From Microthyrium microscopicum (lineage: Eukaryota): a DNA stretch of 64,000 nt. The position numbers and the translations under genes are program-made. Where the stretch lies: assembly GCA_010405405.1 (NCBI GenBank), contig MU004236.1, positions 1,928,070 through 1,992,069 on the forward strand. Direction: 5' to 3'. The notes beneath the pieces were generated by a model. That model was not told the origin of the DNA. It saw only the letters and a list, made by a program, of their open reading frames with translations, and made no database searches. Each line of letters opens with the position of its first letter. Position 1 is the first letter of the stretch. Below are positions 8,638 through 51,675 of the stretch, in pieces.

Positions 8638-10770
8638 CTATTGCGTGGAAATTGGATAATTTCTGCCTGTACGCATAGAGGCAAAAGGATTGTAGTCCTT
8701 AGCGGTACTGCTAGTTCGCCTGCTGCTTGTAGGCCGGCTAAAGGCGATGTCATCATTGGTGAAGCGCTTACTGTAGGAGACTGGATAATCTTGGTTGGAT
8801 GGGTAGGACGGAGTGGATGGATATCCTGGGGTCCGCTCGCCGTAGAGTTTATCGCGTGAGTAGTCTCTGTCTCGGTCTCGGCGTGAAGATCGCTCAGGGG
8901 AGCGAGCTCTTGGAACTGCGCGTGAGCCAGCGGAAGTTGACGGCCTCTTTTCAGTTCCATAGGATGATGAAGGACGGCGTGCCTCTCCTCGTGGAGGGAC
9001 CATGCTGGCAAGAGTATGCATCTTTGTGGCGGTTGCTGACGGACGCTCCACCGAAGGACTTCTTCGCCGGGATGATGCCGTGGTTGGGACTCGGGTTTCT
9101 GTTTGATATCGTGGATCTACTTGGACTGGGCGGGCAGATGACCCGCTTGGTTCTTGCTGTGCATAGAGATAAGACGTTGTCTTCACAGGTTTCGCTGGTC
9201 TTTGGGCCTTGGCCGTTCCTGAGCCATTGGTTCCAGAACTCGAGTAGCCAGAATCTGGTAGAACAGAATCTCTTAGCTTAGATGATGCAGTGGCAGTTGC
9301 GTTTCGTCGCGCAGAAGTGTTGGATGTTGGGACTGAATCCATTGTTCGGGCACGGGGCATGCTTGGATAAGGGGCTTCGCTCGTTGGTGGCTCTGTTCGA
9401 TGTCTTGTAGGGGCACCATAATCAGAATTAACAATAGGCGGAGAAGAATTGTGGTGTTGAAGAATTGGCGGACGCTTAGTGTATGGTTCGACGTTTTCTT
9501 TTGTGGTACGTTGTGGAACAGCGCCATCATCTCGTTCAGCCCGTCGTCGGGCTTTCTCACGATCATCTCGTAATCGACGTTCCTCGGCTTCGCGACGAGT
9601 AGTTTCGCGCGCCTCAGCGCGTTGTTGTTCCACGCGAGCATCTTGTTGTTGTTGAAGCTTCTCGGCTTGGATGCGAGCCTCACGGGCTTCACGTGCCTCG
9701 CGGTCACGCTCTGCTGCTAGCCGGTCGCGTTCGGCCTTTTCGGCTTTTCGTGCTGCTCGGTCTCTTACATAGTATTCGTTGCGTTGCCTTTCCTCTGCTG
9801 CCCGCTCGCGCTCGCGCTCCAGTTGCTGTTGGAGCCTAATTCGTTCTCGTTCCTCGCGCGCTAGTTTTTCCCTTTCAACTCTGGGATCTCGCTCTGAAGG
9901 GGACCGACGAGCGGAGCTTCGCGTTGGATCTCTGGTTGATGTTCGACGAGTCATACCAGGTCGTTGTGCAGTCGTAGGTGGTTTCGATCGATTTGACTCT
10001 GTATATTGCTGGGCGGTCTCTGCCATACTGGCATATTTGTGTCCAAGATCGTTGATATCAATCTCAGGATCAGCCGTGCGAGGAGGAGGAGCAGCAGCAG
10101 CGGCGCGTCTCTTCCGTTCCATGTCATCACGTTGACGCTTCTCCTCCTGCCATTGTGTATAACGTTCTTGTTCAGCTTCTTTTCTTGCACGCTCTTGGCG
10201 GATCTGATCTTGACGGGCTTGGTCTTCTCTTCTCCGTTGATCGCGACGTCGCTCATCGTCACGATCAGCGCGAGGGCGCTCTGCTGGCCGGGAAGCCCCG
10301 CCAGCAGGACGTCTCGATGTGCCGAAATAGTCTTCATTATGTTGTCTTGAGTAGTCGGGGATGTCGGTTTCGTCCGCGTAGCCACGAGGAGCTCGGTCTT
10401 GCACATTTGTTGGTCCTCTTGAAGTGTATGCTGTTGTGTTCGCGGTGGCCGGGTAGGCAAAGGTTTGCGCTCTTTGTAGTCCGCGTCCTCCAGGTCCTGG
10501 ACCCCCCATCCGAGCTCTTTCTTTCCTTAACGCCTCTAATCTCATGAGCGCATCATAACGAGACCGCTCATCATCATCTCCAAGGATGGCATAAGCCTGG
10601 TTTAACCGCTGAAATTCATCAGTTCTCTCCTGCCTTAATTCGTCATCCTTGCATTTATCAGGATGTTTTTGAAGCGCGAGCTTGCGAAATGCCTTTTTTA
10701 TAACAATAGGCTCTGCGGTCCTATCCACTCCAAGGACTTCGTAAGGGTCGAAATTTGGAAGATCGGCCAT
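8638..10770 (-). CDS. DnaJ/Hsp40 J-domain protein with a long charged, low-complexity C-terminus
   Basis: N-terminal DPYEVLGV...AFRKLALQKHPDK...FQRLNQAYAILGD J domain with the HPD motif; 710 aa. Confidence 0.9.
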   Translation of the reverse strand: MADLPNFDPYEVLGVDRTAEPIVIKKAFRKLALQKHPDKCKDDELRQERTDEFQRLNQAYAILGDDDERSRYDALMRLEALRKERARMGGPGPGGRGLQRAQTFAYPATANTTAYTSRGPTNVQDRAPRGYADETDIPDYSRQHNEDYFGTSRRPAGGASRPAERPRADRDDERRRDQRRREDQARQDQIRQERARKEAEQERYTQWQEEKRQRDDMERKRRAAAAAPPPRTADPEIDINDLGHKYASMAETAQQYTESNRSKPPTTAQRPGMTRRTSTRDPTRSSARRSPSERDPRVEREKLAREERERIRLQQQLERERERAAEERQRNEYYVRDRAARKAEKAERDRLAAERDREAREAREARIQAEKLQQQQDARVEQQRAEARETTRREAEERRLRDDREKARRRAERDDGAVPQRTTKENVEPYTKRPPILQHHNSSPPIVNSDYGAPTRHRTEPPTSEAPYPSMPRARTMDSVPTSNTSARRNATATASSKLRDSVLPDSGYSSSGTNGSGTAKAQRPAKPVKTTSYLYAQQEPSGSSARPVQVDPRYQTETRVPTTASSRRRSPSVERPSATATKMHTLASMVPPRGEARRPSSSYGTEKRPSTSAGSRAVPRARSPERSSRRDRDRDYSRDKLYGERTPGYPSTPSYPSNQDYPVSYSKRFTNDDIAFSRPTSSRRTSSTAKDYNPFASMRTGRNYPISTQ

Positions 10771-13700: not shown

Positions 13701-16700
13701 TGGATTGGCGTTGATTTGGCCTCTATGGCCTCGTATGTAAAGATGAGTTTGTGAGTTCGTGGCATGCGCTGGATGGTGTAGAAGCATTTCTGGATATGCG
13801 TGAATAGTGATGCGGACCAATCACCATCAAGGGGTATGGAATGAACCACTCATGTTGACATATGCATTGCGCTGCGTGAATCGTGAGGCCTAGACTGGTC
13901 TGACAGGACTGGTCTTCTGTCTGTGGACTAGGTTCGCAGTATCGTGAGGCAGATGGTAGTAAGATAAGTGCGTTATTTTCGATATCTTTAGGGGTATTTA
14001 CGAAGCTGCTCCGCCTCAGGGGTGAAGTTAGGGGTTTATTTGGTTGCCTCATTGCTGGTTTGGGACCGAGGAAGGCCTCAGCCTGATGGGTGGAGATGCT
14101 ACGTTTTTGCGCACGGGCTTTGTTCAGCCTTGTGGACAGCCTTGCGGTGGATTAGATTTGGGGGCTGTTCAATGTTGGCGATTTGGAAGATTATACCGTT
14201 AGGCTGAGATAGGCTGTTGAAATTGACGTTTGTCGCGATATGCTGTTGGAGAGTCAATTGTTGCGCCGTTTGCTTCTGGGTATTCTGGCAATGACAATAC
14301 CTCCGTGGCACGGATTGTGGTCTTCAAGCTTGACAAACTGTTCCGTTCCGCCGGACTGAGCATGACTTCTCAATTATGCTTCGGATAGAGTATATGTGTT
14401 ATTTGAGCGATTACGTGCCATTTCCGACTAGTTCAAACTCGGTCAAACAATAGTCATGGTGCTCTATGGCGGTTTTCTTTCTTCCATCACAGCGCAAGCA
14501 AAACGACTTGCTTCTCAGAGGGCTGACTTCTGTGGAAACAAACTGTCGACACAAGATTTGCTTTTCTGTTCTCAATCTTCGTCAACGGGTGTTGCTTCGT
14601 GTCTAGTTCTGATCGACAAACTAACGAGAACTTTGTGTGCGAGCAAGGCCAGAGCCTATCTCAGCATGTGCTCAAGAGAAGTCGAGTCAAAAAGGCCCAT
14701 CAAGGATCAACTCAAGACTTGATTATTGATTGCGGACAAGGCTTTGGCTCTCTCGTCAAGCTTTCAGGACTCGATATGTCTACACAATGCAAGAGAGCGC
14801 GGCTTATGAGGCGGCGCTGGAGAAGGCGTGTATCTACACAAATTCCTATACAACTCTTTTCTATAGCGTATTTGCGCACTATATAGCAATCTCCAATTCC
14901 CAGAACTAAAGTTTCATTTATGTTTTCGTTAATCATGTGATTTCAAGAGCCTTTCTACCTATAATATGGCAAATATATCTCATTTCATGCTGTAACACGC
15001 CTAAGATGCATCCTTCTTTTTAACACGCCTATATAAGCGCATTCCCTACGAACGCTACCATCTGTTCCTAGTTACTTCTTGCTGCGGGAATTGTGTTCTT
15101 TTCCGGCATGAAATTTTTACCGCTACCGAGGTTACTGGGCTTCTATATAGGATAATGCGGATACACTTGTCATCACCGATCTCTGAACTACCTCGAGTCA
15201 TGCTACTCAGCACCCTGCTGGGCCAGAATTCACTTTGATCTACTTCGCTTAGTGATTGTTCTATGGTCCAAGCGTTCCAGAGATTGTATTTAAACTTTTG
15301 CCAAAATTCCAACTTCATCCTTTCTTCCTCACAGGCAATCCACATTCATGGATTTGCCTGTGGTATTGTTTCTAAAGCTGCGTCTGCAGCTATTTTGAGT
15401 CTGGATGAATTTGGGGCAGCTTTGAAAGGAGCAAGATGCGATGTGGTTCCATAATCATGCAGTGTTCAGGGAATCCAATACAAACCTTTCAAGGCCGAAT
15501 ATCGTGCCGCGCACATTTCTTTTCGAATTGGCGGCAATGTCTTTGGCCATATTTAAGTTTGGATGAAGTTATACTATGCGCACAGCTGTGCTCTCGTGCG
15601 CATCCATGAGAGCTTGGAACTATCTTAGGCTGATAGCAATAAAGTCGTCTTGCATTGAGCAACACAAGCACTTGTTCTTACTCAACTAGACTTATGCGAT
15701 GGATTCTAGACATGGAAAGAGCTTCTGATCTCTGGTACATCCATGCCTGTACAATGCCGCATCATTAATTGGTGCAGAATATATTTACCACCTCCAACTT
15801 GGCGCAATTGCCTAATCGGGTAATATGCTATGGTTTCAGGGGCACCCAACTTCACTGTCACATAATCCTCCGAGAAGTGACTGTCAAGTCCTGGACCAAG
15901 CTCCCGAGCTTCTCAACAACTGGTTTTATGTCTCCGGCTTCATTTTCAATTCTGTTTTCCTCTCCCACCCACTTCCCAGCTTTCTGCCCTTTTGTCACGA
16001 CAGCTTCTACCAACACTGCCTTCAACGAGTCTCACGAGACACTCTATACTGCCGCTATCATTGCGATATTGCTCGATTCTATTACGGCCTTCTATTGTGA
16101 CAGTACGAGAGAGCACATTTCATTTGGTAAGTCATTCCCTTCGAATCTTCGCGTCGACAGCTTGGGCATAGCGCATCAGCCCAACGTCACTGCAACATTG
16201 TGCCGCGAGGACGCGGGTTGAAGCGACTGTTGGCCCATTGATATCAGCCTCTTCTTGTTCTTAGACTCTGCTCAAGACTTCTGTCGCACACCACCACTCC
16301 CACCAGTTTTCCCATCTCTCATTCCGCCGCCCTGAGCATTTCGAGGATTCTTCTGCAGCTACTAAACTCCATTTGCGCAGATCCCTGGTACTTCTCAGCT
16401 TCTCTAGCTTCCTCTCGCCATTGTGCGCCATATCGGTAAGTCCATTGTCCCTGCCTCTTGACTATCCCGTTGCTGTGGTCGCGAGCGGCTTCCATTCACT
16501 ACACTCCACCTCAACATCAAAACAACCGAGTCCACCTGTGGAGAGACCGCAATAGTGTTAGACTGCGTCTCTCTTGGCGAGCGTGGCTTGATTCCGTTGC
16601 TGTTTTCTGTTGCACTCATTACTCCTCCTTCTCCAAGTCCCGGCACCCTCACAACACAACCTCTTCCACACCACCAAACCCCCAACCCACATTTCCGCTT

Positions 16701-16824
16701 CTCTCTATCACACTCTCCATTGCCTCAGCAATTGCCATTGATTCTAATTATCCTCCAGCTTTCAAAAGCTATCATAACTCCAAGGAGTTTCTCTTGAAAT
16801 CATTCGCCTCTTTCTAGGTCAAAG

Positions 16825-16919
16825 GTACGTGGTCTTCTTGCCTCTATCGCCCACATCCTCCATCAAAACAAGCATGCTGTCTTGGACTACCATTGATCAA
16901 TCAACTAACATCTCCCTAG
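16825..16919 (+). other. Probable 5'-UTR intron of kinase paralog 1
   Basis: AAG|GTACGT donor, ACTAAC branch site and CCCTAG acceptor, ending 88 nt before ATG 17008. Confidence 0.6.
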
Positions 16920-17007
16920 ACCTACAACCACATCAATCACCCTCTTCGGCCATTGAGCCTTCCTCTTACAACCGGACGTTCCATCAACTCCTCCTCCCGA
17001 TATCACG

Positions 17008-20000
17008 ATGTCGTCGGCATTGGGCTCTGCTTCCTCCGCCGATGGCGCTCGCGGCCTACGAGCCAAGTTCTCCAAATTCGAAAAGCGGACCTTGAAGAAG
17101 GTCTCCAAACTATTCAAACGCGCAAAATCCTCCAGGGCGCATCAAAAATACACCGAAAAGGTCTCCGATTCAGATCAATCACCCCCAGAGCCGTCACGAC
17201 CACCTCCCCCGATTCCAGACCTAGCCTCTTCTCCCCACGACTCTCTTTCTCCTACCAATGCAGTTGAGACTACCTCGGTCAACTCAGCTGTCGTACCCGT
17301 TTCAACGGCTGGCTTCATTCGGCCCGATGGCTACCCTGTGCGAACTTCCTCGCTAAGACAGACCGAGGGGCCTGTTACGTTATATGATGGACCCATTGAA
17401 ACCAACTACACCGCATTCAAACAGCAGTCGTCTTCCGATCAGCACTATTCTCCAAAGCTGGACCCTCTGATCGAAGAAAACGACGAAGAAGAGTGCTCTG
17501 CGCCTACGCAACCCGCATCTTCACAAGTCGAAGGCGCAGCTGCAACGTTCTCGACAGAAGATGCTTTCAAGCAGTTGTTATTGAGACTGGATATGCTGCA
17601 GGAGCGCGTTGCCGCAATAGACGCCAAGATTGACCGACGCGAATATAAATCGATTGGGACACAGACAGAGGGCAAAGAATTGGCAGAGCCAACACCTCCT
17701 GAATCAGTCAAGGGCGATCAGTCAGAAGGCTCTAATTCCCACAGAGAACAACGCGATGCTTGCGTGGCCCCTCAGAAGGAAGAGACTACGTCTCGATCAG
17801 GCTCCCTAAAACCGAATGAGACATCCAGTTCGGCTCCAGTTGTGTCTTCGAACGCTGCGGTTGTTCTACCAGAGGAAGAAGTTGCGCCCGAAGAGGAGGT
17901 TTCTCAAGAACAGGTCGTTCAAGAACAGCAGGTCGTTCAAGATGAACAGCCTTCTCTTAGTGCTGCGGCGCCTCCTGCAATTGCGCAGTCCTTTTGGAAT
18001 GTTGTTCTAGATCAGCCATCGCCCAAACAAGCGGACAACCCAAAACCAGAACTCCTTGAATATACCCAGCTGCTCAATAACATCGAGGAATTTATGGGCG
18101 AGGAGGTTGCGCCTAAGTTTGCGCCTGGTGATGCAGAAGCCTCTGGATCCAATCCTGGAGATGAAAATGGGCACTTGGAGCAACGAAGCCTACAATTCCG
18201 CCAGTTCCACCCACATGAGCCCCTTCCGCTTGCCTCCGAGGAGCTCAATGGAGTCAGTCTGGCAGGATATGTCTTCCCAGCCAGCCCTTACCCCGTGGTA
18301 CGGGAAGACTTCTCTTCCATGGCGCGCATGGCCACCTCCGCTGAATCCCCTGTGACTGCTGTTCAGCTCCCCCAGGCCACAGCTGTCCAAACTCCGGTCG
18401 TTCCAGCTACGGTCGCGCCTTCCGTCGTCTCGCTGGCGGTTCCTCAAAAACGAAAGGCTCCGTCCCCTCAAACAGCCGAAGAACGCAAAGCAGAGCCTGA
18501 GCGCAAGAAGAAACGTTCTGCTGCGGTTGCTGCGGTTGCGGTCGCTCCTGTTGTGGTCGCTCCTGTTGCGATTGCTCCTGTTGCGATTGCTCCTGTTGCG
18601 ATTGCTCCTGTTGCGGTTGAGCCAGCTGTGGCTGCTCAAGCTCCAGAATCCCCATCGGAGCTCAAAGAACGGGAGGACCGCGAGCGATGGGGAGAAATTC
18701 TGGAATTGAGAAATAGGGACATTGCACCGGTCATATACGATCTTTTCCAAGGTGCTAAGGTCATCCAGATGATTGGTAAACGGGGCAGTTTCCATCGCTG
18801 CTGGATTGTCACATTTGAGAGTCCTACGGAAGGCGAGATGAAAGTCGTCGTTCGCATTTCGATCCGGGCTACACGTGAGCGCTGGACTGGAGAAGACGCT
18901 TGGAAATTGAAGAACGACAGCCGTCAGCTCAAGTGGCTGAGCCCGCGCTTCTCATGTGCTGCCAAAGTCTATGCCTTCAGCACTGACTTTGATAATTCAA
19001 TTGGGCGGCCTTACCAGATTCAAGAGTACAAGGAGGGAATATCTCTTGACCGAGCATGGAATGCTGATCCAAGACACTTCGGCTTCTCAACGACTTTCGC
19101 ATTGCAAAAGCAGTTGATTCTAAACGTGGCTGAGAAGTATAGGGAGCTGAGCCATCTGGGGGATTTCCGTGCTTCTGGTGGTCTCTATTTCAATACAGAC
19201 GACCCCAACGCTCCTCCTGAAGTAGGACCATTTTTTCAGGAAGGTTGCCATGAGCGAAACCTGGAGCCTCGCTTCTCTCCTGGTGCGGCTGACTTCGGGC
19301 AAGTCCTTGCCAGCAAATTTGCGAAAATGCATGAAATTACTTCTACAAAGCCATGCAAACCCGACGAGGCCTTAGTCCGCACTGGAGCTGTTTGGTTGAT
19401 CAAGTCCTTTTTGAAAAAGGTCTACCCATCGCTGACTGATGATGAGGTTGACCGGCAGCGTGAGATGCTCGAGGACGATGAAGAGGAGGTTCGAGTTGAA
19501 TGCTGGCAAGAAGCTCTGGGCCAGATCATCCGCCATTCATCCGACGATACTACACTGCCACGATTTTTGATCAAGCATCCTGATTTCAATTGGCAGAATA
19601 TCTTGATCAACGACAAAGGTGAAGTCGTTGCGTTCATTGATATGGACCAATTAAGCGTTGTTCCAGCGGAGCTTGCTTGCGCAGCGCCCCCGTTTTTCAT
19701 GTACCCGGACTGGAATCCGTGCTACAAACACCTCATATACGACCCTAGCATCAAGCGCTCCTCCCTACAAGATGCTAAGATGAACCGATGGTTCTATGCG
19801 AAGTGCCTTGAGAACCAGCCAACCGCGGGTTCTCAGGACCTATACAAAAAGGGTTGGGCTCATGTTCTGGCTGCGATATGGGAACCCTTGAAAGAAGGGA
19901 ACATGAACTGGCTGATTATGGTAGCCGAAGAGATGCTTGCGCAACGATATTCGGAGTCGAGCGAAAAGAGTATCGAGGCCAAGCTCATGTTTCTTGGTGG

Positions 20001-20130
20001 TAAGTGTCCGGATTTGACTGAGTCGGTTCAAAAAGGAGTCATGGAGGTTATCGGCACATGGATGGAGCAGGAAAATGCAGATTTTGCCGATGGATTTGGG
20101 ACGGTATTGGAGGCTGTATTCAGCACTTGA
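17008..20130 (+). CDS. APH/choline-kinase-like phosphotransferase, paralog 1, with about 560-aa low-complexity N-terminus
   Basis: GSFHRCW loop, VVVR, IGRPYQIQE, catalytic HPDFNWQNILI and FIDMD motifs; 1040 aa. Confidence 0.85.
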   Translation: MSSALGSASSADGARGLRAKFSKFEKRTLKKVSKLFKRAKSSRAHQKYTEKVSDSDQSPPEPSRPPPPIPDLASSPHDSLSPTNAVETTSVNSAVVPVSTAGFIRPDGYPVRTSSLRQTEGPVTLYDGPIETNYTAFKQQSSSDQHYSPKLDPLIEENDEEECSAPTQPASSQVEGAAATFSTEDAFKQLLLRLDMLQERVAAIDAKIDRREYKSIGTQTEGKELAEPTPPESVKGDQSEGSNSHREQRDACVAPQKEETTSRSGSLKPNETSSSAPVVSSNAAVVLPEEEVAPEEEVSQEQVVQEQQVVQDEQPSLSAAAPPAIAQSFWNVVLDQPSPKQADNPKPELLEYTQLLNNIEEFMGEEVAPKFAPGDAEASGSNPGDENGHLEQRSLQFRQFHPHEPLPLASEELNGVSLAGYVFPASPYPVVREDFSSMARMATSAESPVTAVQLPQATAVQTPVVPATVAPSVVSLAVPQKRKAPSPQTAEERKAEPERKKKRSAAVAAVAVAPVVVAPVAIAPVAIAPVAIAPVAVEPAVAAQAPESPSELKEREDRERWGEILELRNRDIAPVIYDLFQGAKVIQMIGKRGSFHRCWIVTFESPTEGEMKVVVRISIRATRERWTGEDAWKLKNDSRQLKWLSPRFSCAAKVYAFSTDFDNSIGRPYQIQEYKEGISLDRAWNADPRHFGFSTTFALQKQLILNVAEKYRELSHLGDFRASGGLYFNTDDPNAPPEVGPFFQEGCHERNLEPRFSPGAADFGQVLASKFAKMHEITSTKPCKPDEALVRTGAVWLIKSFLKKVYPSLTDDEVDRQREMLEDDEEEVRVECWQEALGQIIRHSSDDTTLPRFLIKHPDFNWQNILINDKGEVVAFIDMDQLSVVPAELACAAPPFFMYPDWNPCYKHLIYDPSIKRSSLQDAKMNRWFYAKCLENQPTAGSQDLYKKGWAHVLAAIWEPLKEGNMNWLIMVAEEMLAQRYSESSEKSIEAKLMFLGGKCPDLTESVQKGVMEVIGTWMEQENADFADGFGTVLEAVFST
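18538..18612 (+). repeat. Coding minisatellite, 5 x 15 bp (AVAPV/VVAPV/AIAPV)
   Basis: GCGATTGCTCCTGTT three times exactly, preceded by two variant units. Confidence 0.9.
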
Positions 20131-20619
20131 TTGGGATTGCTTATTGCTATGAGCGTTGGTTTTGCTCATGTTGGAGAATTGTTTACTTGTTTTGAGGAAG
20201 TTATATACCCACTGGAATACTAGCAAGGAGTTGGGCTTTGATTGGGCAGTAGAATATATATTAGACTCTCTTGCAATTAAAACAATTGCAAAATTTCTGG
20301 TTATCTGTGAGTAATGTTTGGCTCGATAATCACAATCCCATGAGGACACTGACAGTTTGTTCAATTTATGCTTCACTAACTGGGCACAAAACATGATATG
20401 GTCAAATCATGATACTATTGAATGCTCTCAGGCTGTTATTAGACAAACATGACAAACAATGGTCAGAGCTGCCTGCAGTGTTGGCTCTACTTGAGACGGA
20501 CGATGTCAACTACAACGAGATTTCGCTGAGTCTGGAAGACTTGCACTAAATTAGCTACATGACTTACATATTTAAGGCGGATTAGATTATAGACTATGGT
20601 TTCCGCTATCATTCGAGTC

Positions 20620-21675
20620 CATCTATTGCCTCGTTGAAGAAATCTTGTCTGGGAGGTCTGTTGGCTGCCCATCACAACATCCATCCAGGAATTTTATTTG
20701 CACCATCGCCAAATGGCACGAGATATTGATAAAGTCTCCAGCCAAGTCGTTTGCCTAATATAGGGATTTGTTGGGTGCGACAGCTTCGGAAACTTCTGAC
20801 TTCCGCAAAAATGCTATGCAAACTGAAGTCGGCCCATTCTACCACGAGGGCATTCATGAGTGGCAAAAGCCGCCATGCTTTACGCCTGGCGGAACCGACT
20901 TCACCAAAGTCCCAAAAGAATAATAAGGACGAATGAACGTACGCATACAGCAAAGCAACACTAACAGAACTATGGCCTCCCGAGGCCGCGTATGTGGGTC
21001 GCTCTTGCTGCTGGAAAAGGTCCTCAAGTACTAGCTCCCCAGTTTCAGCCTCAATACTGCCAGTCTTGAAGCCACCAAAATGATGAAGCCGGGCGCTGAG
21101 GATGTCTTGAGAGTGGAAGATCTCGGCAAATATATTCCACTGCAGAGTAACATGTGACCGGCTCCCGGTTTGGGCTATCAGGTCTTCAATTGATACACCG
21201 GGACATAGGTTGGCAAAACATATTTGTCAACGAGAAGGGCAAAGTTGTCGCGTTTATTGATTGTGATGAGCTGGACGTTCTAGCCGCAGCAATGGGTTAC
21301 GTTGCTCCGCCCATTTTCTTATACGCAAATTGGGTTTGCGGGTATTACCACTTTGTCGACAGTCTTACAATCCTAGAAAGCTCCATCAAGGAGATGAAAG
21401 CCAACCCCAAGCGCCTCAACGTCTTTCTCTTTCAACAGGAAGGAGTGAGCGAGCAGGACCTGCGCCATGCTCGTCTGTCCCATGTCCTAGCTGCAATATG
21501 GGCAGTTCTGAAGAACGAGTTCGCCACAGGCGGTCTGGAGTGGCTTATCATGAAGACTTTGTCTCAATTCCTGCTATTGAGTTCGACTAATGAGGAGAAG
21601 TGTCTGGAGATCTTGCAGACTCAGGAGAGCGTTCTGACAGTGGTCAATGCATGGATGGAATTTGAGAGCCTTTGA
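20620..21675 (+). pseudogene. Pseudogene of the same APH-like kinase family (paralog 2)
   Basis: LVEEILSGRSV; EVGPFYHEGIHE (from 20825) followed by TAA TAA, a later TAG and a frameshift; then HRDIGWQNIFV, FIDCD, SHVLAAIW. N-terminal extension missing. Start approximate. Confidence 0.8.
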
Positions 21676-23062
21676 GCTAGGTTCCGGTGCCTCTGGCATA
21701 ATCGTAGATGAGGATTGAAATTTTGGGAACTATTGGGCGAGCTTACGAATCATGAGAGAGGAATTCAACAAGACAGTTTTGACCATAAGAGATAATGTCA
21801 TTCTATTCAAGGTCAATGAACTACTTGTGGGCAGCTAGAGTAGCATCTCAAATACGACATTAAATACGTTTGATTTCCAGGTCATTTGGAAAGCAAGCAC
21901 AAACATGGCATACGCCCCGTTAAGCTGCGCAATACTAACAGTAAACTTACTATCTATGAACAATGGAGAAACTCCAGAATTCTGGCTCAATATGGTGTCC
22001 CTTATCTCAGAATATTGCCTGCACTTTCCCTGCCAGCGTTCCTGGCTCCGTTGGCTTGCTAAAGACATATGCCCTTTAAGACCCTCAGCTGACCTTTTAA
22101 ATTTGCAATGTACTATGTCGACTACCTAGGTATACTTATAGGATGGGTTGGAATGCAATGAAGTGTAAAGAAATCGGGGCAGATGCTTCGACCTCTGGTT
22201 TGGCAAGACTACCTGCAAAGCCCATTGCATGGTCACTGATCGTTTTCTAGCGACTTAATACAATAGTCTTAATCGAAACTTGACCATCTCAATTCCCAAG
22301 TAGTTATAAAAACCTATTACTTCGTTGTAAGTAAATAAGACAAGTGTCGGCGAAGCTTTGGCTCAGTGATGCGGAAGAATAAAATTCCCTCCGCTATCTG
22401 CGTGAAGAGTCTGGGGTTACTTTTTATGAGCATGCACGCCGACTCAACTTGTATGATCATTCATGAGGAATTGAACTGGGCAGAGAAGCATCAGTAACTT
22501 ATGCAATATCAGTACTTGATTGATCTTTTGATATGATCGAAGGATCTTGGCCAAAGACCTATAGACTGACCCCCATAAAATTGACACCAGTGGAACTACC
22601 AGATAGGCACTTATATATTCTATAGAGAAAGCCACGCCTCTTAGCTGGCTTGTTGAAATAAGTGATTATGCTGGAAATAGAATCGTTATCTCTAGATGCA
22701 ATGCCGCCTTTATCAAAGAATACAAGTCTACACCTACTCGTGATGGCACTGTTACTTGCTTATGCCCCGAATCAGACTCTCTCAAATCAGATACTAGACG
22801 TTCATTCGAGCCGTAATGTGCGCCTCCATGTTTCTCAGCTCGTTTGTTTACATCAATGTCGAGGCCTCTACGCGTGGTCTTCACCTCAAAATTTACGACG
22901 CATTTACGACGCGTTCGCGTGTCAACAGAGAGCTAGAATATTTCACTTCATTCATCCCAACCTAGAGCCTATAATTCCCCGGCTCGTCAATAGATTCTTT
23001 GCTCAGACCTTCTCCACAACATGCACTCCCATCCTCGACTACAGTTCCAACCACCACTCGAA

Positions 23063-25840
23063 ATGCCATCAACTCAAAACCTCGTGCTCAAAGAGCATAG
23101 CACACGCAGTCTTCGCAGCAAGTTCTTGCTTTTTCGAAACAAAGCCTCGAATAAGCTGCGGAAAACATTCAACAAAGGGAAATCGACACTTCAAAACTCT
23201 CAACCACCCACCAAAGATGATCCCAGCAGGCAGCCTCGTTCTTCTCAACCAGGACTGAACATAAGCTACCCTCCTGTCACTTCATGTGACCCACTAGCAC
23301 GCCCATCGGCTATCAGCCAACCTTCAAAACCCTCAAGCTGTCAAAAGACGCACGTTAACGACTCAACTTCTGCTACAACATCTGCGGGACATGCGAAGCA
23401 ATTGGGCTCGACTTCGCCTGATATAAACCAAGTCCAAGCAGTTGTACCATCCAAAGCGCCCCAAGTTGACACCTCTGAGAAGCCAGAAACCCTCTCTGAG
23501 CCTGATTGTGAGATTCAGTCAACAGAAGACCTGAAGACTCCCGGAGAGCCAGCCAGCTCTGTCAAGTCAACAAATCAGGTTAAATCAAAGAGCAGTACCG
23601 AAACGATAAAGCCTCTCACGCCCCCCTGTTCGAATGAAGAACTCAAACAAATACTACTTCAGTTGCAAGTATCTTTCTCATCTAGTGTTCAGAAGAACGC
23701 AGAGCAGATCACAGCCTTAAGGGCGGTTGTTCAACAAAACACAGACCAAATAGGAGCGCTGAAAGCAGATGTTCAGCAGAATACAGAGCGAGTATGGGCT
23801 TTAGAAACAAGCATTGAACAAATCTCAGAGCAAATAGCAACTGTAAAAGCAGAATTTCAGCAGATCCATATAACAACAACAGCAACAATTGAAACCCCTC
23901 CCGAATCAGTCAAGAGCGACCGAGAGAGCGCCCAAGAGGAATCTCCCGAACCTCAGACTGCCATATATAACCCCAAAGTGGCCATTTCAAAGAAGAAGGC
24001 AACAAAGACCTCGCATCATTCCCCTCGGATCGCGATTTCTAACGCGGTCGATATTTTTCACGACCAAGCGACTGCCCCGCGAGATGCTGAAGAGCCTCAT
24101 AATCTTGATTCCTCACCGGGGAAGCCACAGACCGCTTTTACACAAGCTATTACGATTGTATCCGATAAGAGTACAGAGTCTCTACCTTTCGACGAGGAAC
24201 AGAAGAATGAGGATACTCGTCCTGCGAACGGCGCTGTGTCTACAAATTCTCCCTCGAACCCAAAACCTCAGTCTGGTGCGCAGCCTCCTATCGAGACTAC
24301 TTTACCTTGGTCATTCTTACCTGGTCCAATGCTTGAGCAGCAGGATGACGAATCTACATCCGCTGTGAAGACAGCCACATCTGCTGCTACTTCTATCCAA
24401 GCAGTTGATCGTTGGGGGCCCGAGTTTACTCGAAAGAGCATTCCTGACAAGAAAGTAAAGAAGCTCATGAGACAGTTTCTGGGACGGGCGGCTCATAAAC
24501 GTCATATGCATGTCACCCGAGTCAAAGGCAGCTTCCACCAATGTTGGATGGTTGTTTACGACGGAGAATTCGACGTTGAAAAATTGATTGTTAGAAGCTC
24601 CATTCGCGCGACAAAACTGCGCTGGACCAAGAACGATGATTGGTATTGGAATAATCAGTCTCGTATGCTGGAGTACTTTGATGAAAGCAATGTCGACTGG
24701 ACACCTCAACTACTTGAGTCCAGCACAAGCTTTGACAATCCCATTGGTCGTCCTTATATGATCCAATCGTTTTTGCATGGGATGAGCCTGTGTAAGGCCT
24801 GGAATATGAAGCCACGTCGCATTCCTAATGGGCTGACTCAAGAGAAATGGCACGATAAACTACTGAAAAATCTGGCCGCTTTCTCCATAAAGTTCGGCAA
24901 CACGATTAAAGCCAGCGCCGCAGGCGGTCTTATATTTCTGGATCCTGCGGAAGGCCAAGAGACCCCTAGACTACGGATCGGCCCTTTCTTCCATGAGGGA
25001 GATCATACAGAGAACCGCGAGCCTCGATTTACTCCTGGAGCTCGGGACTTCGACATGATTCTGGCCGATAAGGTTGCACGAATGATGATTAAGATAGACC
25101 AGGAGCCGGCAAATGATAACTCCATATGTTATGGAGGCGCACTTTGGCTCTTGATTCAAGTCCTCAGCAAGGTTTTCCCTACCTTCAATATGAGTCTTGC
25201 TAGTCATGCTTTTGAAGATATGCAGAAGCCAGACTATGACCATATCAAAGACAGCGAGGATGTGGAAAATCACATCATTACCATGGCTCACCATGCCCCA
25301 GTATCTGGCCGAGCATGTTATAAATTGAAGCATCCAGACTTCAATTGGCAAAACATAATTGTCGATGAGGATGGGAATATTGTCGCAGTAATTGACCTGG
25401 ACCTGTTAACTGTAATGCCACCCTCCTTTGGGTACGCGGTACCTCCATACTTTTTGTGGCCTGAATGGCATCCATGGTATCAGAATCAGGTCGATAGTCC
25501 AAGCATTGCACGCGGATCACTGGAAGCCATCAAGGAGGATCGGAGAGCCTACATTGAGCACATGTTCGACGAATCCGGGGACGACAAGAGCGACCTGGCT
25601 CACGCTCGCATCTCCCATATTCTGGGTGCCATTTGGGAGCCTCTGAGCCGTGAGAACCCGGAATGGTTGGTTTGGGTTGCCAAGAAGGTTTTGATTGAGT
25701 CTTCTAAGAGCGTGGGTCTAAATATCAACACGAAGACCACTCTAGTCGACCTAAGCGATGAGGAATCACCTTTTCTGGCCCAAGAACAATCACAAACTTG
25801 GACCCGGGTTTCCCACTGGATGGATATGGAAGGCCAATAG
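23063..25840 (+). CDS. APH-like phosphotransferase, paralog 3, with coiled-coil N-terminal region
   Basis: GSFHQCW, IGRPYMIQ, IGPFFHEG, HPDFNWQNIIV, VIDLD. Start is either 23021 or 23063. Confidence 0.85.
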   Translation: MPSTQNLVLKEHSTRSLRSKFLLFRNKASNKLRKTFNKGKSTLQNSQPPTKDDPSRQPRSSQPGLNISYPPVTSCDPLARPSAISQPSKPSSCQKTHVNDSTSATTSAGHAKQLGSTSPDINQVQAVVPSKAPQVDTSEKPETLSEPDCEIQSTEDLKTPGEPASSVKSTNQVKSKSSTETIKPLTPPCSNEELKQILLQLQVSFSSSVQKNAEQITALRAVVQQNTDQIGALKADVQQNTERVWALETSIEQISEQIATVKAEFQQIHITTTATIETPPESVKSDRESAQEESPEPQTAIYNPKVAISKKKATKTSHHSPRIAISNAVDIFHDQATAPRDAEEPHNLDSSPGKPQTAFTQAITIVSDKSTESLPFDEEQKNEDTRPANGAVSTNSPSNPKPQSGAQPPIETTLPWSFLPGPMLEQQDDESTSAVKTATSAATSIQAVDRWGPEFTRKSIPDKKVKKLMRQFLGRAAHKRHMHVTRVKGSFHQCWMVVYDGEFDVEKLIVRSSIRATKLRWTKNDDWYWNNQSRMLEYFDESNVDWTPQLLESSTSFDNPIGRPYMIQSFLHGMSLCKAWNMKPRRIPNGLTQEKWHDKLLKNLAAFSIKFGNTIKASAAGGLIFLDPAEGQETPRLRIGPFFHEGDHTENREPRFTPGARDFDMILADKVARMMIKIDQEPANDNSICYGGALWLLIQVLSKVFPTFNMSLASHAFEDMQKPDYDHIKDSEDVENHIITMAHHAPVSGRACYKLKHPDFNWQNIIVDEDGNIVAVIDLDLLTVMPPSFGYAVPPYFLWPEWHPWYQNQVDSPSIARGSLEAIKEDRRAYIEHMFDESGDDKSDLAHARISHILGAIWEPLSRENPEWLVWVAKKVLIESSKSVGLNINTKTTLVDLSDEESPFLAQEQSQTWTRVSHWMDMEGQ
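23687..23854 (+). repeat. Degenerate 4 x 42-bp coding repeat (14-aa double heptad, coiled coil)
   Basis: VQKNAEQITALRAV / VQQNTDQIGALKAD / VQQNTERVWALETS / IEQISEQIATVKAE. Confidence 0.75.
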
Positions 25841-26396
25841 TTGGAGTTCCAGGCTCTCGTCACTGTGAGCCATGCCGCGCCTGTGCTTTGTACGATTAAG
25901 TAACTTATTACATTTCAAGTTAATGTTTTTGAATTTTACGGCACAAGATTGGGAGCACGATACTCACCTAAGAACTTAGGTAGGCATGGGCTACTCCTGT
26001 TGCTGGACTGTTGGCATGTTTAGGAAGTTGTATACCCTTCTGAGGATTGTTGAAGTTTAGATTCAAAGCGAATGGAATATTGGGCATCAGTCAGTCCTAG
26101 ACAAGCGCGCTTAATCCCTATCTGCTTATGCTGTCCCCGAATTTCGGCGTCTTCACCAATTTGAAGTACTTCATACAAGTCCATACAGGGAAATTGCAGC
26201 TGCGCATCGCTCAATATTGATCGCATTAGTATATACTAGAAGTGACCGCACCTTACTATTGAGGTAGATTTCGGTGATAACCTGGATCCGTTTTCATTCT
26301 ACCTGAAAGCTTCCGTATTTGATAATCTCACCTCGAAACATTAGACGCGTTAGTCGGTCACTTGAAATCTCTCGGCATTCACCTTGAGCCTCCATA

Positions 26397-26432
26397 TTCA
26401 TTGGGACATCTGACTTCATTGGGACATCTGAC
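26397..26432. repeat. Exact 18-bp tandem duplication upstream of paralog 4
   Basis: TTCATTGGGACATCTGAC twice. Confidence 0.9.
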
Positions 26433-26600
26433 TTTTGATCAACAAAGCCTTTCTTTCCCAGCTTTCTCCACGACTATCTCCATTCACACAGCATCTTCCT
26501 TTCGAAACGCTACTCAGGCAGAGATCAAGTCAATAACAGAGAGCAAGTGTGCAGGAAATCGACCGTCTGCCCTTGCACCCAAATAAAACTCTACAACTAG

Positions 26601-28469
26601 ATGGAGCAATCTCGTTTTGATGCTGATCTAATGGGTGAGGCCTTGCTCATGCGAGAAATCGCAGCAACTCTGGAGATAGACATTAAACGTGTCTCCAAGG
26701 CCATTACTCCCAAGGGGCAATCGACCAACATGAACACTACTCAGACTCAGTCGTTGTCTATACACCAGTCAACGACTTCTCTGAAGTCAGCAGGCCATAA
26801 GTCAGAGCGCGCACTCGACCCTTCAGCCGCGGCAATTCGCAAGCAAGAGAACAAAGAGTTTCCGGAACAGATAAAATCCCAGCTCGAGAACGAGCATAAG
26901 GAAAAGCTTCCTCCACCTAAAATGCCTGCGAAGCAAGGTCAGAAGCAGCCTGCTGCAGAATCGAGTTGTAAAGACATCCCCAATGGCCCCAAACAACCAA
27001 TCAAAGTCCCAGTAGACGACCCAGAAGAGATAGCTCACAAAAAGCGTTGGGGTGAGATCCTGGAAATCGAAGACAAACAAGTGATTGATCTCTTGTTCAA
27101 AGTCTTTTACTCGAAAGCTGTGATCACAGACAAGCGCCTGGGGGGTTTCAATCGAGTCTTCATAGCAGTGGTTATGCGACCATTTACTGCTCCAATTAAA
27201 GTTGCTGTGCGAATCAATATCCGAGCAACGAACGAAAGATGGACTAAACTAGATGCATTCAAGCTTCAACAGCAAGTTCGAACATGTAACTGGATACACA
27301 AAAAGTACAATCTTGCTCCCAAGGTCTGGTCGCACGATACTGGTTTCAAGAATAGCCTCAAGCGACCCTACATGATCATGAATTGTGTCGATGGACGTCC
27401 ACTGAACTATGAGTGGCATGCTCCTCTCGGTGCTTACGGCAAAAAGAAATTTCAAACCTTGGAAAAGAAGCAAGCACATATCATGAAGAGTGTTGCCCAG
27501 GCGGTCGCCAAATTGAGCGCGAAAACCTTCAATGCTGGAGGTACACTCTACTTTCCAAGCGATGATGCGACCAAAGACCCTCAAGTTGGTTCTTACTTCC
27601 ATGAAGGGAACCACGAGTCGGATTCCCCACCGTTCTTTACGCCTGCTTACTATTCGTGGACTGATGTTTTGGCGGACAATTGGGCTCGAATGAAATTGAA
27701 GCAATCGCGAAATAGCTCACCAGTACAACAGCTGAAAACTGATGGAGCTCTATGGGTAGTTGAAAAAGTCTTGCACACAATCTGGCCAGGCTTCAATGAA
27801 GCGTGCATTCACCGCCTTCGGAAGACATTATCAAGCAATCCACATCGATTCCAAACCTCGGAAGAGGTCATGAAAACACTACATCCAGCTACCAACGATC
27901 CCGACAGCGGACAATTTCATATCAAACATATGGATCTGGGCTACCAAAATATCATGATTGATCACCTTGGTAACGTAACCCAATTCATTGATTGGGATCT
28001 GATCAATACTGTCAATGAGCATGTTTGTTGTACTGCTTACCCAACTTGGCTTTCAGCAAATTGGAACTTCTACTACAAGGACCGGGTCGGCGACGGCCAC
28101 CCACACTTTCCTAAGAACTCCAAAGTCCACCTTGAGAGATACCGAGAATAGTACGCTCAGTCACTCCTTGGCGTGAAAGGCGAGGATAGCTCGGCTCGCT
28201 TGATTCGAGGATCCCATGTTCTAGGCAGCATAGTAGAACATGTAAGCTTCCATGATATTTCCTCATTGGTATGGCTTGCTGGACAGATACTATGCCACGC
28301 GTCGCTGAATATCGATGCTTCCAGCGACGCAGCAACCCAGCTTTTGATACTGATAGGCCATGAAGAAAGCACGAATCAGTCGGCTACGAAACAGAAAGTT
28401 ATGATGCAGTTCCAGAAATGGTGGAATGATCTATTGAAGCCAAAGAATATCCCCCCGGAGCTAGATTGA
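26601..28469 (+). CDS. APH-like phosphotransferase, paralog 4, interrupted by one in-frame TAG (28149-28151); 622 aa if decoded
   Basis: GGFNRVF, RPYMIM, VGSYFHEG, HMDLGYQNIMI, FIDWD. After YRE* the same frame continues YAQSL...SHVLGSI...LVWLAGQIL...KWWND, matching the C-termini of the paralogs. Confidence 0.75.
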
Positions 28470-30354
28470 AAACAGCTTTTGGCGTATCTGTTGCTTTTCG
28501 TACGCTCACAAACGAGAGAGAAATTATGCAAGCACAGATTCAGAAGTAGTCTGTTCTTGAGAAGAACTAATCGTCCTGCCTCCACACGTTCAAGCTACAA
28601 ATTTCAGACACTACGTTGTCCTTTGAGGAGTATCCGACTAGGTCTACATAGAGTGGAAATGAGAAGACTCAAATGTTTGCAGAGTGGTTCGCCCGAAGTT
28701 ATGAATAGGTTAGGAACACTAGAGGAAGGAATAAAAGTAAATGACAGAATCGTAGCACACAAGTTTCTTGCCCAAAAAAAAAACCATGTTCACGTCCAAG
28801 AGGGATATGTATCTTACCATAGTGTGAGCCGGTTGTAAGCCCATGCCGATAGCAATAAGTGTCTTGAAGCAGAGGATTAGTGACTATCTAGATCAAAACT
28901 AGAAGAGTAAAGTCGTCCAACCGTAAGCAGACATCATTGTCGGTCGTTCCATATTTCAAAAGACTATCATGATAAAGAGTAGATGTATTGTCTATTAATA
29001 GCAACACAAGCCTACATTTGTATTAGGTCTACATGATGAGAATCCAAGATGAAGTCAGCAGCTATGTGGTGTTTATGATATTGCTTCTATGAGGTAAAAT
29101 TGAAAATACTTTGGTGAGTTAGCTTTGCTTCCTGGACCTGATACACATCTTCTAAACAGAAAAATGTAGGTTTTAACCTTGTCCGAAGCCATTAAGCTAA
29201 AAAGATTAAACTTCTAAATATCAAAAAAGAATTGTGATACAGGCCCGAATCGATCGTGTTGAATGTGGAGAGGTGAGTTGTATTCCCTAGACACTCAATC
29301 AAGTGATGCGCCAAACTCGTCTCGGAAACTTGTACCAGCACTACCACCGCGAGGTGATGATTGGTACATCGGATTATGGATCAGAGTGAGAACTCCCCCA
29401 CGTAAAACCTGCTGGATAATCAAAAACTGACAACATTGTGAATATATACAGCGCATTATGCTAGTTCTGATTTCATAATGTACAACCCAAAAACTTCCAG
29501 CTGAAACCAAGCCAAGAGATAATCAAGCATATACTGTTGGTAGGTATTCTGACACTTAGAGCTATGTAGATGCTGGAATTCGATGATTACTATCGTCAGC
29601 TTCAAAATCGCCGTTCATCTTGTGAACTATGCGGTTTAAGTCGATAGATAAAACCTTTGGGAAAGATGATGATACTAGCACAAGGAGAGGAAATCAACCG
29701 TTTGTCCACTTCAAGGGCATGTAGTAGGAAGGAACAATGGCGATTGCTAATTACTTCCACGGCCTTGCTACAACAGCTCTCGTCCATCTCCCCGTCTACC
29801 ATCTGCCAGTGTTTTCATTAAGTCGCATCCGATTCGACACCTAGCGTACGACCAGCCTCCATCAAGCCTCCGTTTTCCATGGCTCAAGCGCTCTGAAGCT
29901 AACAACGTTGAGGCTGCCGACAACATGATTCATTTCACGGCCACAGCCGTCCCACTGTTGAGGTTCAGTATTGCATCTCCGGAGAGAGCCATTCCTACTA
30001 TCGTCCATTTCCGTGGTGGATTGTGTAACTCCCACACTGCATTTTCAGTCTCCCTGGTGAGATAGATGTCGACTGCGAAATGTTAGACAAAAAGGCAATA
30101 CTCGACACCAAAACACTAAAAAGTTGAACCATACTAGCAGTGATTAAATGGTTCAATGGAGCCGAAGGACGCCGAAGCATGTGCCCCCGAACCGGATTGA
30201 AGATAGCTGGACGGTGAGTAATGCAATGAGAATTTTTTAGAGTATATACCAATACGACCCCAGTAGGTATCAATGCTATCACCATCTATGAATCCCCATC
30301 ATTACAGCAACTGAATTAACCAACCAGCTACAAGCCTCCAGGTACAAACTTCAT

Positions 30355-48843: not shown

Positions 48844-51675
48844 ATGTCATCTGAGTCTCTCAAGATCCGTCATCGTAGCGTTGCAGCTCGATCATCATTC
48901 GAAAATGAGCCGGCTCTATCTCTTTCTTTTGACTCTAGCCCGCCCTCCGCCAGGCATAGCCTGGACTCTGTCCCAACTCCATCAAGCAATCACATTCGGG
49001 ACGACAAAGCATACTTGAGCCTTCACAGCCGTCATGTCTACCTTCCCATCGGCCAGAAGAACTTTCAAACAAAGGTTTATCGCGTGTTCAGTGAAAGCAT
49101 TTTCGATCCACTCCGCGGAACACTTACCACAATTCCGGTGAATCCTAACAATCGTACGAAGGCAATACTCTGTGATCAACTAGTCAAACCTATTCCACAA
49201 TTTGACGGCCAGTCTGGGGACACTACTCCGTCTGGAGAGTCATCTTCATCCTCTCGATCATCCATTTTCAAACAGAGGATATCACATAAACCACAAACAG
49301 TCAAACATCACGAGCGTGTTGAGCTGAGGTCCCCATCCAATGCCACATTCGCTACTCCACCAGTTGAGTTAGAGGATCCAACGCCATCAGCACAAGCATC
49401 ACCGGCCATCAATGCTTTCCCGTTCCCGAGCACAGGAGAACTACCCAGCCCACTGACGCCCTTCTCTACACGCCTTTCAAGCTCACCTCTTCGTCCAAGC
49501 CAAAGACATACGCCTCGATCGTCCAGCTCACGTCTTTCCACACCCACGCGGACACCAGACCGTTTCATTCCACTTCGGCCAATTAGGAGCGCGAGGGATA
49601 GCTATGAAATCAGTAGGTCTCCGGAAAGACTCACTGACCAGGAGAAAATTGTTCGCTCCGTGGAAGTCGCTCCTGATCCCTTCAGTCGGAGATTGCGTGC
49701 AAATGCTGCTCGTCTAGTATCGCGAATCAGGGGAACTCCTTCCCATCCTATCAATCTTGGATCTCGAGGTTCCAACAGCGTAGTCACGCTTCGCAGAAAC
49801 TCTACTGGATCTGCTGCCCGAACTTTTAGCCCCGGTGCCATATAGAATGTTGGCGGCATGAACGCAGCATCAAGTGACTCAGTGAATAGCGTTTCAGATG
49901 GCAGAGGAGGCTACATGACAAGTGGTAGCAATGCTCCCTTGTATTCAGCCAATTTCTTTGCTTCAACAGACCCTGCTACTGAACGCGACATGCACGAGCG
50001 AAGGCTTGCTCTAGCGCTGGATATCGATCCCTCCACTCGTTTGTTCAGTCCCTCATCTCCCTCGTCCGGCAGTGGATCGCTTGATAATAGCCCAGAGCAA
50101 GGGCTTGGTGCATCCGGAAAGCTTGTTTGGAAGAACAACGAATGGAACAGAGAAGGATCAATTACATGTAAGTTGTGCCCTTCGAGCGATAATTCTCTGA
50201 CTAATCAGATGACAGCACCTCTACGAGAAGAGAAGAAAAAGAAAGCGGTACCAATTATACCTTTTAGATAAGTTTCTTCGATGTTTTTGAGACTTTTACT
50301 GACCTTGTCTACAGTGCTTAATGCACCGGCTCTGAGAGATGATTTCTATTGCTCCGTATTGGCCTATTCTCATTCAGCAAAGGTTCTGGCAGTCGGTCTC
50401 GGTAACACGGTTTATTTTTGGAACGAATCCGGAGGTGTTGAAAGTCCACCAAATCTCAATCCACCAAGCAGTTCCTACGTTTCTTGTCTATCCTTCTCAT
50501 CACGAGATGGAGGAAAGGGTATCCTAGCCGCTGGTCGATCCAATGGTCATGTCGTTCTACATAGTCCTCATGAGAGTCAAACTCGCTTCGACATACATCA
50601 GCCTAGTCCGATCTGCTGTGTAGCATTTCGACCAACCTCAAGAAGCAAAGACTCCATGCGGGACCGTTATATTTCGGTCAAGACAGAAGACCTTCTGATT
50701 GGTGATGAGGCGGGGCACGTCTACTTTTACTCTGTTGAGTGGCCAACAGAGACTGAGCGAGACTTGTTCGACTTTCGCGGCTGTGTGACTTTGATAGTTC
50801 GTCTGACGATGCACACTCAGCAAATTTGTGGCATTGCATGGGCCCCGGATGGAGACACCTTTGCTACCGGTGGTAACGATAATCTATGTCATCTTTGCGA
50901 TACTCGACGAGTCATAGCTGAAGGCAAACCTGATACAGCTCATCTCACTTCATCATCCTTCCCCTCATTCAACGTGGACAGGCAAGTCGATCTTACCTTA
51001 CCACACTTCAACATCTCCGCCCTATTTGCCCGCCACTGCTTCACTGTAGCAGCGGCTGTAAAGGCCATTGCCTTTTGTCCCTGGCAACGCGGGCTCCTAG
51101 CCATTAGTGGAGGCTCCAACGACCGACGCATTCATTTTTTCCACACTCTCTCTGGCGCAACTCTTGCCACTGTAGATTGTCATGCTCAAGTCACCAGTCT
51201 TGTCTGGAGTACCTCGCGGCGCGAAATCGCTGCTACTTTTGGCTTTGCCCAGCCCGAGCATCCTTACCGCATTGCCGTTTTCAAATGGCCCAGCTGCGAA
51301 ATCGTTGTCAAGATTCCTTGGTTCGATGAGCACCGTGCCCTCTTTGCCATTCCTTACCCAGGCGGTCCTAATATCTCCCGGTCCCATGAAGACTCGGAGC
51401 TAGATGCACGTGGACGCGATCGCCGTGGGCGTGCACGCTCTCGCTCAGGACTCTTTCGTTCGCGCGATTGGCGACGTGAGGGTGGCTTATGGTGGAGCCG
51501 CACTGAGGAGGAAGGCTGCTTGGTCGTAGCCACCAGTGATTGCAGCATCAAATTCCACGAAGTCTGGGCTGAGGAGCGCAGGGCTACGGGAGAGCGAGGG
51601 GGGATGTTGGGTGGAAGTGATATCTTGGATCTGATTCACGGAATTGAGCGAGATGATGGTGAGATTATCCGCTAA
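48844..51675 (+). CDS. AMA1: Cdc20/Fizzy-family APC/C activator, meiosis-specific Ama1-like; in-frame TAG at 49843-49845 and a putative AT-AC intron
   Basis: C-box TPDRFIP, IPFRVLNAPALRDDFY, WD40 (TGGNDN, AVKAIAFCPW, GGSNDRRI), C-terminal IR tail. Exons 48844-50167, 50216-50267, 50313-51675. The three ORF-track pieces share one frame. Confidence 0.85.
50268..50312 (+). other. Putative non-canonical AT-AC intron (45 nt)
   Basis: AG|ATAAGT ... TACTGAC ... CTAC|A. Removal restores F-R-V-L-N-A-P. Confidence 0.65.

Follow-up and report, generated by a model that had tools for sequence, protein, structure and literature searches.

A lone in-frame TAG in an APH-like kinase gene of Microthyrium microscopicum and a second in the nearby AMA1 orthologue: possible sites of sexual-stage restorative RNA editing

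A stop codon inside a reading frame that is otherwise open raises the question of whether the gene has begun to decay or whether its message is restored before translation. The question arises here for the fourth in a series of kinase copies (paralog 4) on a stretch of 64,000 nucleotides (the window) from Microthyrium microscopicum, a leaf-litter fungus of the Dothideomycetes (order Microthyriales). TAG is the only stop that is turned into a sense codon by A-to-I editing, and the initial annotation of this DNA proposed such a repair for paralog 4, with the full-length protein being made only in fruiting bodies. Here, we consider the gene, its relatives and a second stop of the same kind in the window, and weigh the explanations that may account for them. 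The gene and its landmarks are as follows.

26601..28469, + strand: kinase paralog 4, read through the stop (516 sense codons, TAG, 105 codons and a TGA at 28467-28469)
28149-28151, + strand: lone in-frame TAG, codon 517, with A28150 as the candidate edited base
28140..28157, + strand: family motif Y-R-x-stop-Y-A, its codons reading Y R E stop Y A
28152..28466, + strand: post-stop segment of 105 codons, comprising the five C-terminal helices of the kinase fold
27927..27950, + strand: catalytic loop H-M-D-L-G-Y-Q-N (H443..N450), intact
27987..27998, + strand: I-D-W-D metal-binding motif (residues 463-466), intact

Apart from the one TAG, paralog 4 is intact. The paralogs at 16957-20130 and 22994-25840 align without gaps across its stop (NRWFYA and DRRAYI), which bears out the pairing of these two motifs with YRE-stop-YA that had been made from the sequence at the outset, and the 105 homologous, lesion-free codons that had been claimed after the UAG are indeed there, ending on the TGA and sharing 38% identity with the closest paralog, P0005. 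The tail stays open beyond what chance would allow: when the 105 codons after the stop are shuffled, only 50 of 20,000 versions remain open, and the remaining two frames of the same region contain 13 and 4 stops. An in-frame UAG, an open reading frame that is otherwise intact and a homologous downstream part, as expected of a restoratively edited gene, are thus all present in the kinase. Read without repair, the genomic sequence encodes a protein of 516 residues that lacks the five C-terminal helices and is probably inactive.

The closest database entry to paralog 4, and its sole close match, is BT63DRAFT_440860 (P0002, 554 aa) from M. microscopicum, and a word-based search for orthologues gave a single match among 4203 candidates, namely the stretch's own model. 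A profile of the four kinase copies in the window found 1486 relatives at E <= 0.001; among the matches listed, the nearest relatives (P0003-P0008 and P0012) all come from a single scaffold of M. microscopicum (2.4 Mb), and Venturia comes next. Neither the profile nor the word-based search showed a close kinase orthologue in another named species, within a library of relatives that is clustered at 50% and may conceal nearer ones. This scaffold carries at least eight copies of the APH-like kinase, four of them in tandem at 16957-28469 (+), and by these comparisons the kinase cluster is a lineage-specific expansion. Most of the copies on the scaffold have long, low-complexity, disordered N-terminal extensions of 450-850 residues.

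Pfam returns no match for paralog 4, which stays below the gathering score of PF01636 (APH), and two of its sister copies score 18.5 and 20.2 bits against the cut-off of 23.2. The AlphaFold model of residues 140-622 reaches a pLDDT of 92.3 and a pTM of 0.91, and Foldseek relates it to 25-hydroxysteroid kinase, APH(4)-Ia, macrolide phosphotransferase and choline kinase (probability 1.0, E 6e-8 to 1e-5). The features that define the APH/choline-kinase-like fold are found together in this model: it is bilobal and has both the H-x-D-x4-N loop and the D-x-D metal site. By its fold, paralog 4 is a kinase of this small-molecule type, unlike the eukaryotic protein kinase PUK1.

Few signs of decay are seen in paralog 4. 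The gene has one lesion in 1869 nt, and in the family columns that are at least 80% conserved it retains 34 of 42 residues, as against 30-36 in the full-length sisters P0003-P0007; if it is decaying, it has barely begun. In an alignment of 61 relatives, picked from 150 matches listed among the 1486, the motif around the stop is widely shared (Y at -3 in 53, R at -2 in 58, Y at +1 in 55 and A at +2 in 42), and paralog 4 has all four of these residues. The stop column itself varies among the 61 (D 15, A 9, V 8, L 5, I 4, F 3, R 3, W 3). In the seven sister copies it holds W twice (P0006, YREWYAQ; P0012, YRKWWLS) and F, A, A and R in four others, and the residues that flank it in P0006 are identical to those in paralog 4. 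Since P0006 and P0012 have W at this column, a change from TGG would be the simplest origin of the kinase TAG and is a plausible one. The closest paralog, P0005 (BT63DRAFT_456348, on the same scaffold), has a gap of 5-6 residues at the TAG column, and its model shows no trace of the Y-R-x-x-Y motif, which may reflect a true deletion or a second modelling work-around.

Repeat-induced point mutation (RIP) is indicated by a TpA/ApT ratio above 0.89 together with a (CpA+TpG)/(ApC+GpT) ratio below 1.03. The two indices are 0.57 and 1.46 in the gene and 0.75 and 1.30 in the window, on the non-RIP side in both, and a RIP origin of the kinase TAG was rejected. The initial annotation had listed a RIP-type TGG-to-TAG change among its alternatives; the TGG origin remains plausible, with W in two of seven sisters, and its attribution to RIP falls away. 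The kinase cluster evidently loses copies, because paralog 2 is dead and P0012, a family member of 340 aa, is truncated.

20702-21675, + strand: paralog 2, dead copy, with its N-terminal half gone, three TAA, one TAG and TGA stops, and a frameshift

In the public annotation, this dead copy stands as a protein of 177 aa (P0008).

The window was also scanned for lone stops that lie between two open stretches of no fewer than 90 codons. This yielded 13 sites, of which only the kinase TAG and a TAG at 49843-49845 lie in convincing coding frames; the frames translated at four of the sites had a non-coding look when judged by eye. Seven flanking frames from four lone-stop sites, the N-terminal pieces of AMA1 included, gave no Pfam match, and a looser scan produced 117 candidates that are mostly noise. 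At 842-4555 (+), an open frame of 206 codons lies upstream of and in frame with the ORF of a dual-specificity phosphatase, with one TGA (1460-1462) between the two; the 206-codon frame has no Pfam match and a non-coding look, and is probably due to chance or a 5' leader. A DnaJ-domain gene at 8236-8640 (-) has TAG as its apparent normal stop (8638-8640), after which 134 in-frame codons are open and look non-coding. No tRNA gene, and hence no suppressor tRNA, was found within the 64-kb window.

The second TAG lies 21.7 kb downstream of that in the kinase and belongs to the AMA1 orthologue.

49843-49845, + strand: second lone TAG, in the AMA1 orthologue (coding sequence about 48844..51675), with 49844 as the candidate edited base

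This gene encodes a meiotic APC/C activator of the CDC20 family and reads SPGAI-stop-NVGG around the TAG; its orthologues bear the name AMA1 in Dothidotthia, Cucurbitaria, Paraphoma, Dendryphion and Stemphylium. The stop falls in a column (GA[VI]-W-NVGG) that holds W in 101 of 103 aligned homologues and F in one, while one terminates there; the alignment covers P0159-P0262 of the 110 ids P0158-P0267, with the own models P0158 and P0260 excluded and P0263-P0267 outside the range. Both halves of the gene are conserved, including the D-R-F-I-P box, up to the C-terminal I-R. In the public annotation, the gene is broken at the TAG and appears as two neighbouring entries, KAF2668784 and KAF2668785. 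Among the candidate introns that would eliminate the stop, none combines a sound 5' site with a branch; the two AMA1 introns that are supported by homology measure about 53 nt (GTAAGT) and about 45 nt, and both have a CTGAC branch. The 45-nt intron (50268/50269-50312/50313, +) joins IPFR to VLNAP, a junction that orthologues confirm, and permits no GT..AG placement; slid to the only position that yields a known type, it has the ends ATAAGT...CTAC and looks like an AT-AC intron, one whose TACTGAC branch is normal.

One record, P0262 (a JGI metagenome contig of 1524 nt), extends from Met-1 to the residue just before the AMA1 stop, with 241 of 338 residues identical (71%). A contig would end on that codon by chance about once in a thousand cases, and it is far more likely that the stop is common to the taxon of P0262, although this sharing is read from the end of the protein and not from the codon. 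If two proteins that have diverged by 29% did share the stop, selection would have to have kept the roughly 600 codons downstream intact, and the stop would therefore be bypassed. Beside the kinase TAG, the AMA1 TAG suggests, short of proof, that such stops are mended in the RNA of this fungus.

The public model BT63DRAFT_440860 deals with the kinase stop in another way. It begins at Met-11 of the paralog 4 frame and reads ERYRE-Y-DAATQ, which requires that an intron be removed at the TAG.

28151..28324, + strand: 'intron' of the public model, 174 nt, in frame and open (GTACGC...CCAG), its GT made up of the G of the TAG and the next T
28314..28609, + strand: one contig of 296 nt (depth 3.3) from the public run X1, the sole X1 piece on the gene, short of the TAG

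The intron consensus used here consists of a 5' site like GTRNGT and a CTRAY branch near the 3' end. The modelled intron has GT..AG ends and begins with GTACGC, but it contains no CT[AG]A[CT] motif 8-45 nt from its 3' end and is 174 nt long, while the two homology-supported introns of AMA1 measure about 53 and 45 nt. It does not resemble non-coding DNA either: its frame is continuous with the gene and runs through without a stop, as it does in 1217 of 20,000 shuffles, and it encodes residues 518-575, that is, three of the five post-stop helices, with a pLDDT of about 90. The segment includes the family block SH[VI]L..I.E / W.A..IL, and 20 of 52 of its residues are identical to P0005 and 19 of 58 to P0006 (33-38%). 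Within 400 nt of the kinase TAG there are 64 in-frame, stop-free GT..AG pairs; a gene caller will therefore always find one, and a single find means little. Because the stretch that it removes encodes three confidently folded, family-conserved helices, the public 174-nt intron is very probably an annotation artefact. The shorter option of 39 nt (GTACGC..TAG, 28151-28189), which had been described at the outset as weak and devoid of a branch site, is present and likewise has no CT[AG]A[CT] 8-45 nt from its 3' end. The run X1, whose RNA nature is a guess, was compared with positions 16500-29500 and contains 0.11 of the words; the first 11 nt of its contig belong to the end of the modelled intron and pass into the exon without a splice. 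With 11 letters against the 31 needed to count as bridging, this is a weak hint against the 174-nt intron.

The sequence around A28150 reads A A U [A] G U A C, and the U at -1, the G at +1 and the A at +3, which the initial annotation had taken as a fit to the fungal editing preference, are correct as stated. However, U at -1 and G at +1 come automatically with any TAG, and independent information is given by the +3 position alone. For F. graminearum, the published descriptions consulted give as preferences U at -1, purines at +1, +3 and +4, C or U at -2 and G at +2, with an importance that decreases from -1 over +1 to +3. The A28150 site matches these three top-ranked positions, and its A at -2 and C at +4 are depleted bases. 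It is predicted to lie in a hairpin loop of 9 nt on a stem of 3 bp with a centroid energy of -0.9 kcal/mol, which is no better than shuffled sequence, 132 of 200 shuffles folding equally well (z = 0.42). These signals are compatible with editing and non-diagnostic.

According to the sections of the literature consulted, mRNA editing is listed for Fusarium, Neurospora, Sordaria and Pyronema, and none is reported from A. nidulans cleistothecia or B. cinerea apothecia, with the rest of the Pezizomycotina treated as an open question in reviews. The same sources mention single species of other classes that have premature stops at equivalent sites, with editing "yet to be determined", and place the origin of the Ame1-Tad3 interaction in the Sordariomycetes. 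No report of editing in Dothideomycetes or in pseudothecia came up in a search of the literature. F. graminearum has 71 edited premature-stop genes, and in the accounts at hand PUK1 and 69 other edited Fusarium genes had been concealed by false introns in automated annotation. FgAMA1 is presented there as a gene whose restorative editing is proven and in which a TAG arose six times independently at one site in the Sordariomycetes, and FgBUD14 illustrates that an edited stop can also fall within an alternatively spliced intron. The tables of one such study, as far as consulted, locate edited sites by genome coordinates (PMC10776026).

We consider it possible, at a probability of roughly 0.4, that the kinase TAG is subject to sexual-stage UAG-to-UGG restorative editing, and are equally tentative about the wider proposal that Microthyrium has such a system, with AMA1 and the APH-like kinase as two of its genes. 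In favour of editing are the restriction of the damage to a single TAG, the W in P0006 and P0012, the preferred bases at -1, +1 and +3, the predicted hairpin loop, the very probably false intron of the public model, the second lone TAG in AMA1 and the proven editing of FgAMA1. By analogy with the 71 edited genes of F. graminearum, fixed edited stops would be expected to outnumber unedited single-TAG alleles once an editing system exists. Against editing speak its genome-wide documentation, in the sources consulted, solely in Sordariomycetes and Pyronema, the Sordariomycete origin given for Ame1-Tad3, the weak hairpin, the depleted bases at -2 and +4, the variable stop column and a family that loses copies. 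Several of these points would fit a young nonsense allele or incipient pseudogene, in which a recent and unrepaired G-to-A change, probably TGG to TAG, struck one copy of a redundant cluster with fast turnover, as the first step of decay or as a loss specific to the isolate; we regard this as a serious possibility that falls short of an even chance. Any pseudogene begins with one lesion, the cluster is an expanded one with a dead copy 5 kb upstream and a truncated member in P0012, and the unconserved stop column, the non-significant hairpin and the want of reports on editing in Dothideomycetes all agree with it. For the kinase TAG taken alone, in an unstudied class and beside a dead copy, the odds would be perhaps four to one for a young pseudogene. 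However, the lesion would have to be very recent, as there is no second one in 1869 nt and residues are kept as in the sisters, and a young allele in the kinase leaves unexplained the lone TAG of AMA1, which replaces a near-invariant Trp and is apparently common to another taxon. The AMA1 case raises the belief that the fungus bypasses UAG to about an even chance or slightly better.

The remaining explanations are much less probable. That the stop is spliced out, with the 174-nt intron, the 39-nt intron or a regulated alternative intron as in FgBUD14, is unlikely: the GT..AG ends, the G at +5 of GTACGC, the presence of the 174-nt intron in the public model and the FgBUD14 precedent are to be set against the abundance of equivalent GT..AG options, the missing branch motifs, the short AMA1 introns with CTGAC branches, a length of 174 nt that is a multiple of three and encodes 58 residues in paralog-like helices, and the weak hint from X1. 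Some full-length protein could also arise without editing, by UAG readthrough or a suppressor tRNA, and two lone TAGs in conserved frames, which need some bypass, would both fit readthrough. A C after the stop makes a context leaky, but the base is U in the kinase and A in AMA1; with no tRNA gene in the window and with TAG apparently serving the DnaJ gene as its normal stop, we hold such a bypass to be very unlikely. Least probable of all is an error of sequencing or assembly, or a mutation acquired in culture, with a sense codon in the wild fungus. Only one assembly exists, which leaves room for it, but a single-base error would rarely create a stop exactly at a W-compatible column, the window has a second TAG of the same type, and that of AMA1 is seemingly shared with an independent metagenome record.

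The TAG of paralog 4 most probably arose from TGG. If editing takes place, A28150 would, during the development of the ascoma, be converted in the mRNA to inosine by the Tad2/Tad3 tRNA deaminase pair together with a stage-specific cofactor. The edited UAG would be read as UGG (Trp), the kinase of 622 residues would be produced only at that stage, and the AMA1 TAG would be repaired by the same mechanism. The editing system would then extend beyond Sordariomycetes and Pezizomycetes into at least one lineage of Dothideomycetes, so that a system of a familiar type would gain a member from another class and another family of proteins. The reviews consulted leave open in which classes of filamentous ascomycetes mRNAs are edited, and the current model has the machinery arise in the Sordariomycetes. 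Positions 28150 and 49844, within 22 kb of each other in a culturable Dothideomycete, make the question of editing cheaply testable. If there is no editing, the public kinase model of 554 aa still has a very probably false intron, and AMA1 is still wrongly divided into two genes.

Paralog 4 resembles different known systems in its fold, in its lesion and in its neighbourhood. With the superfamily of APH, choline kinase and fructosamine-3-kinase (PF01636) it has in common the fold and the H-x-D-x-x-x-x-N and D-x-D motifs, whereas paralog 4 and its sisters score below the Pfam cut-off and the sisters have long disordered N-terminal extensions. As in a unitary nonsense pseudogene, there is a single stop in a multi-copy family with a decayed neighbour; in contrast to one, paralog 4 has neither further lesions nor a loss of conserved residues, and AMA1, an essential sexual gene, is hard to fit into that comparison. 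PUK1 (FGRRES_01058) and the 69-71 'PSC pseudogenes' of F. graminearum, as described in the publications at hand, also have a UAG in an otherwise intact frame with a false intron over the stop, U at -1 and purines at +1 and +3 as at A28150, and TGG as the ancestral codon in most dated cases. The parallel with PUK1 that the initial annotation drew thus holds for the false intron and the context and fails for the protein, since PUK1 is a eukaryotic protein kinase with two tandem UAGs, while the gene described here has one UAG and an APH-like fold. Editing of the Fusarium PSC genes is proven by cDNA, whereas paralog 4 is known from genomic sequence in a host whose class lies outside the documented editors. 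For the second TAG, the counterpart is FgAMA1 (PSC33), the meiosis-specific APC/C activator: the orthologous gene carries the Microthyrium TAG, a likeness that is established for the gene, and in the accounts consulted AMA1 is a gene that repeatedly became dependent on editing in the Sordariomycetes.
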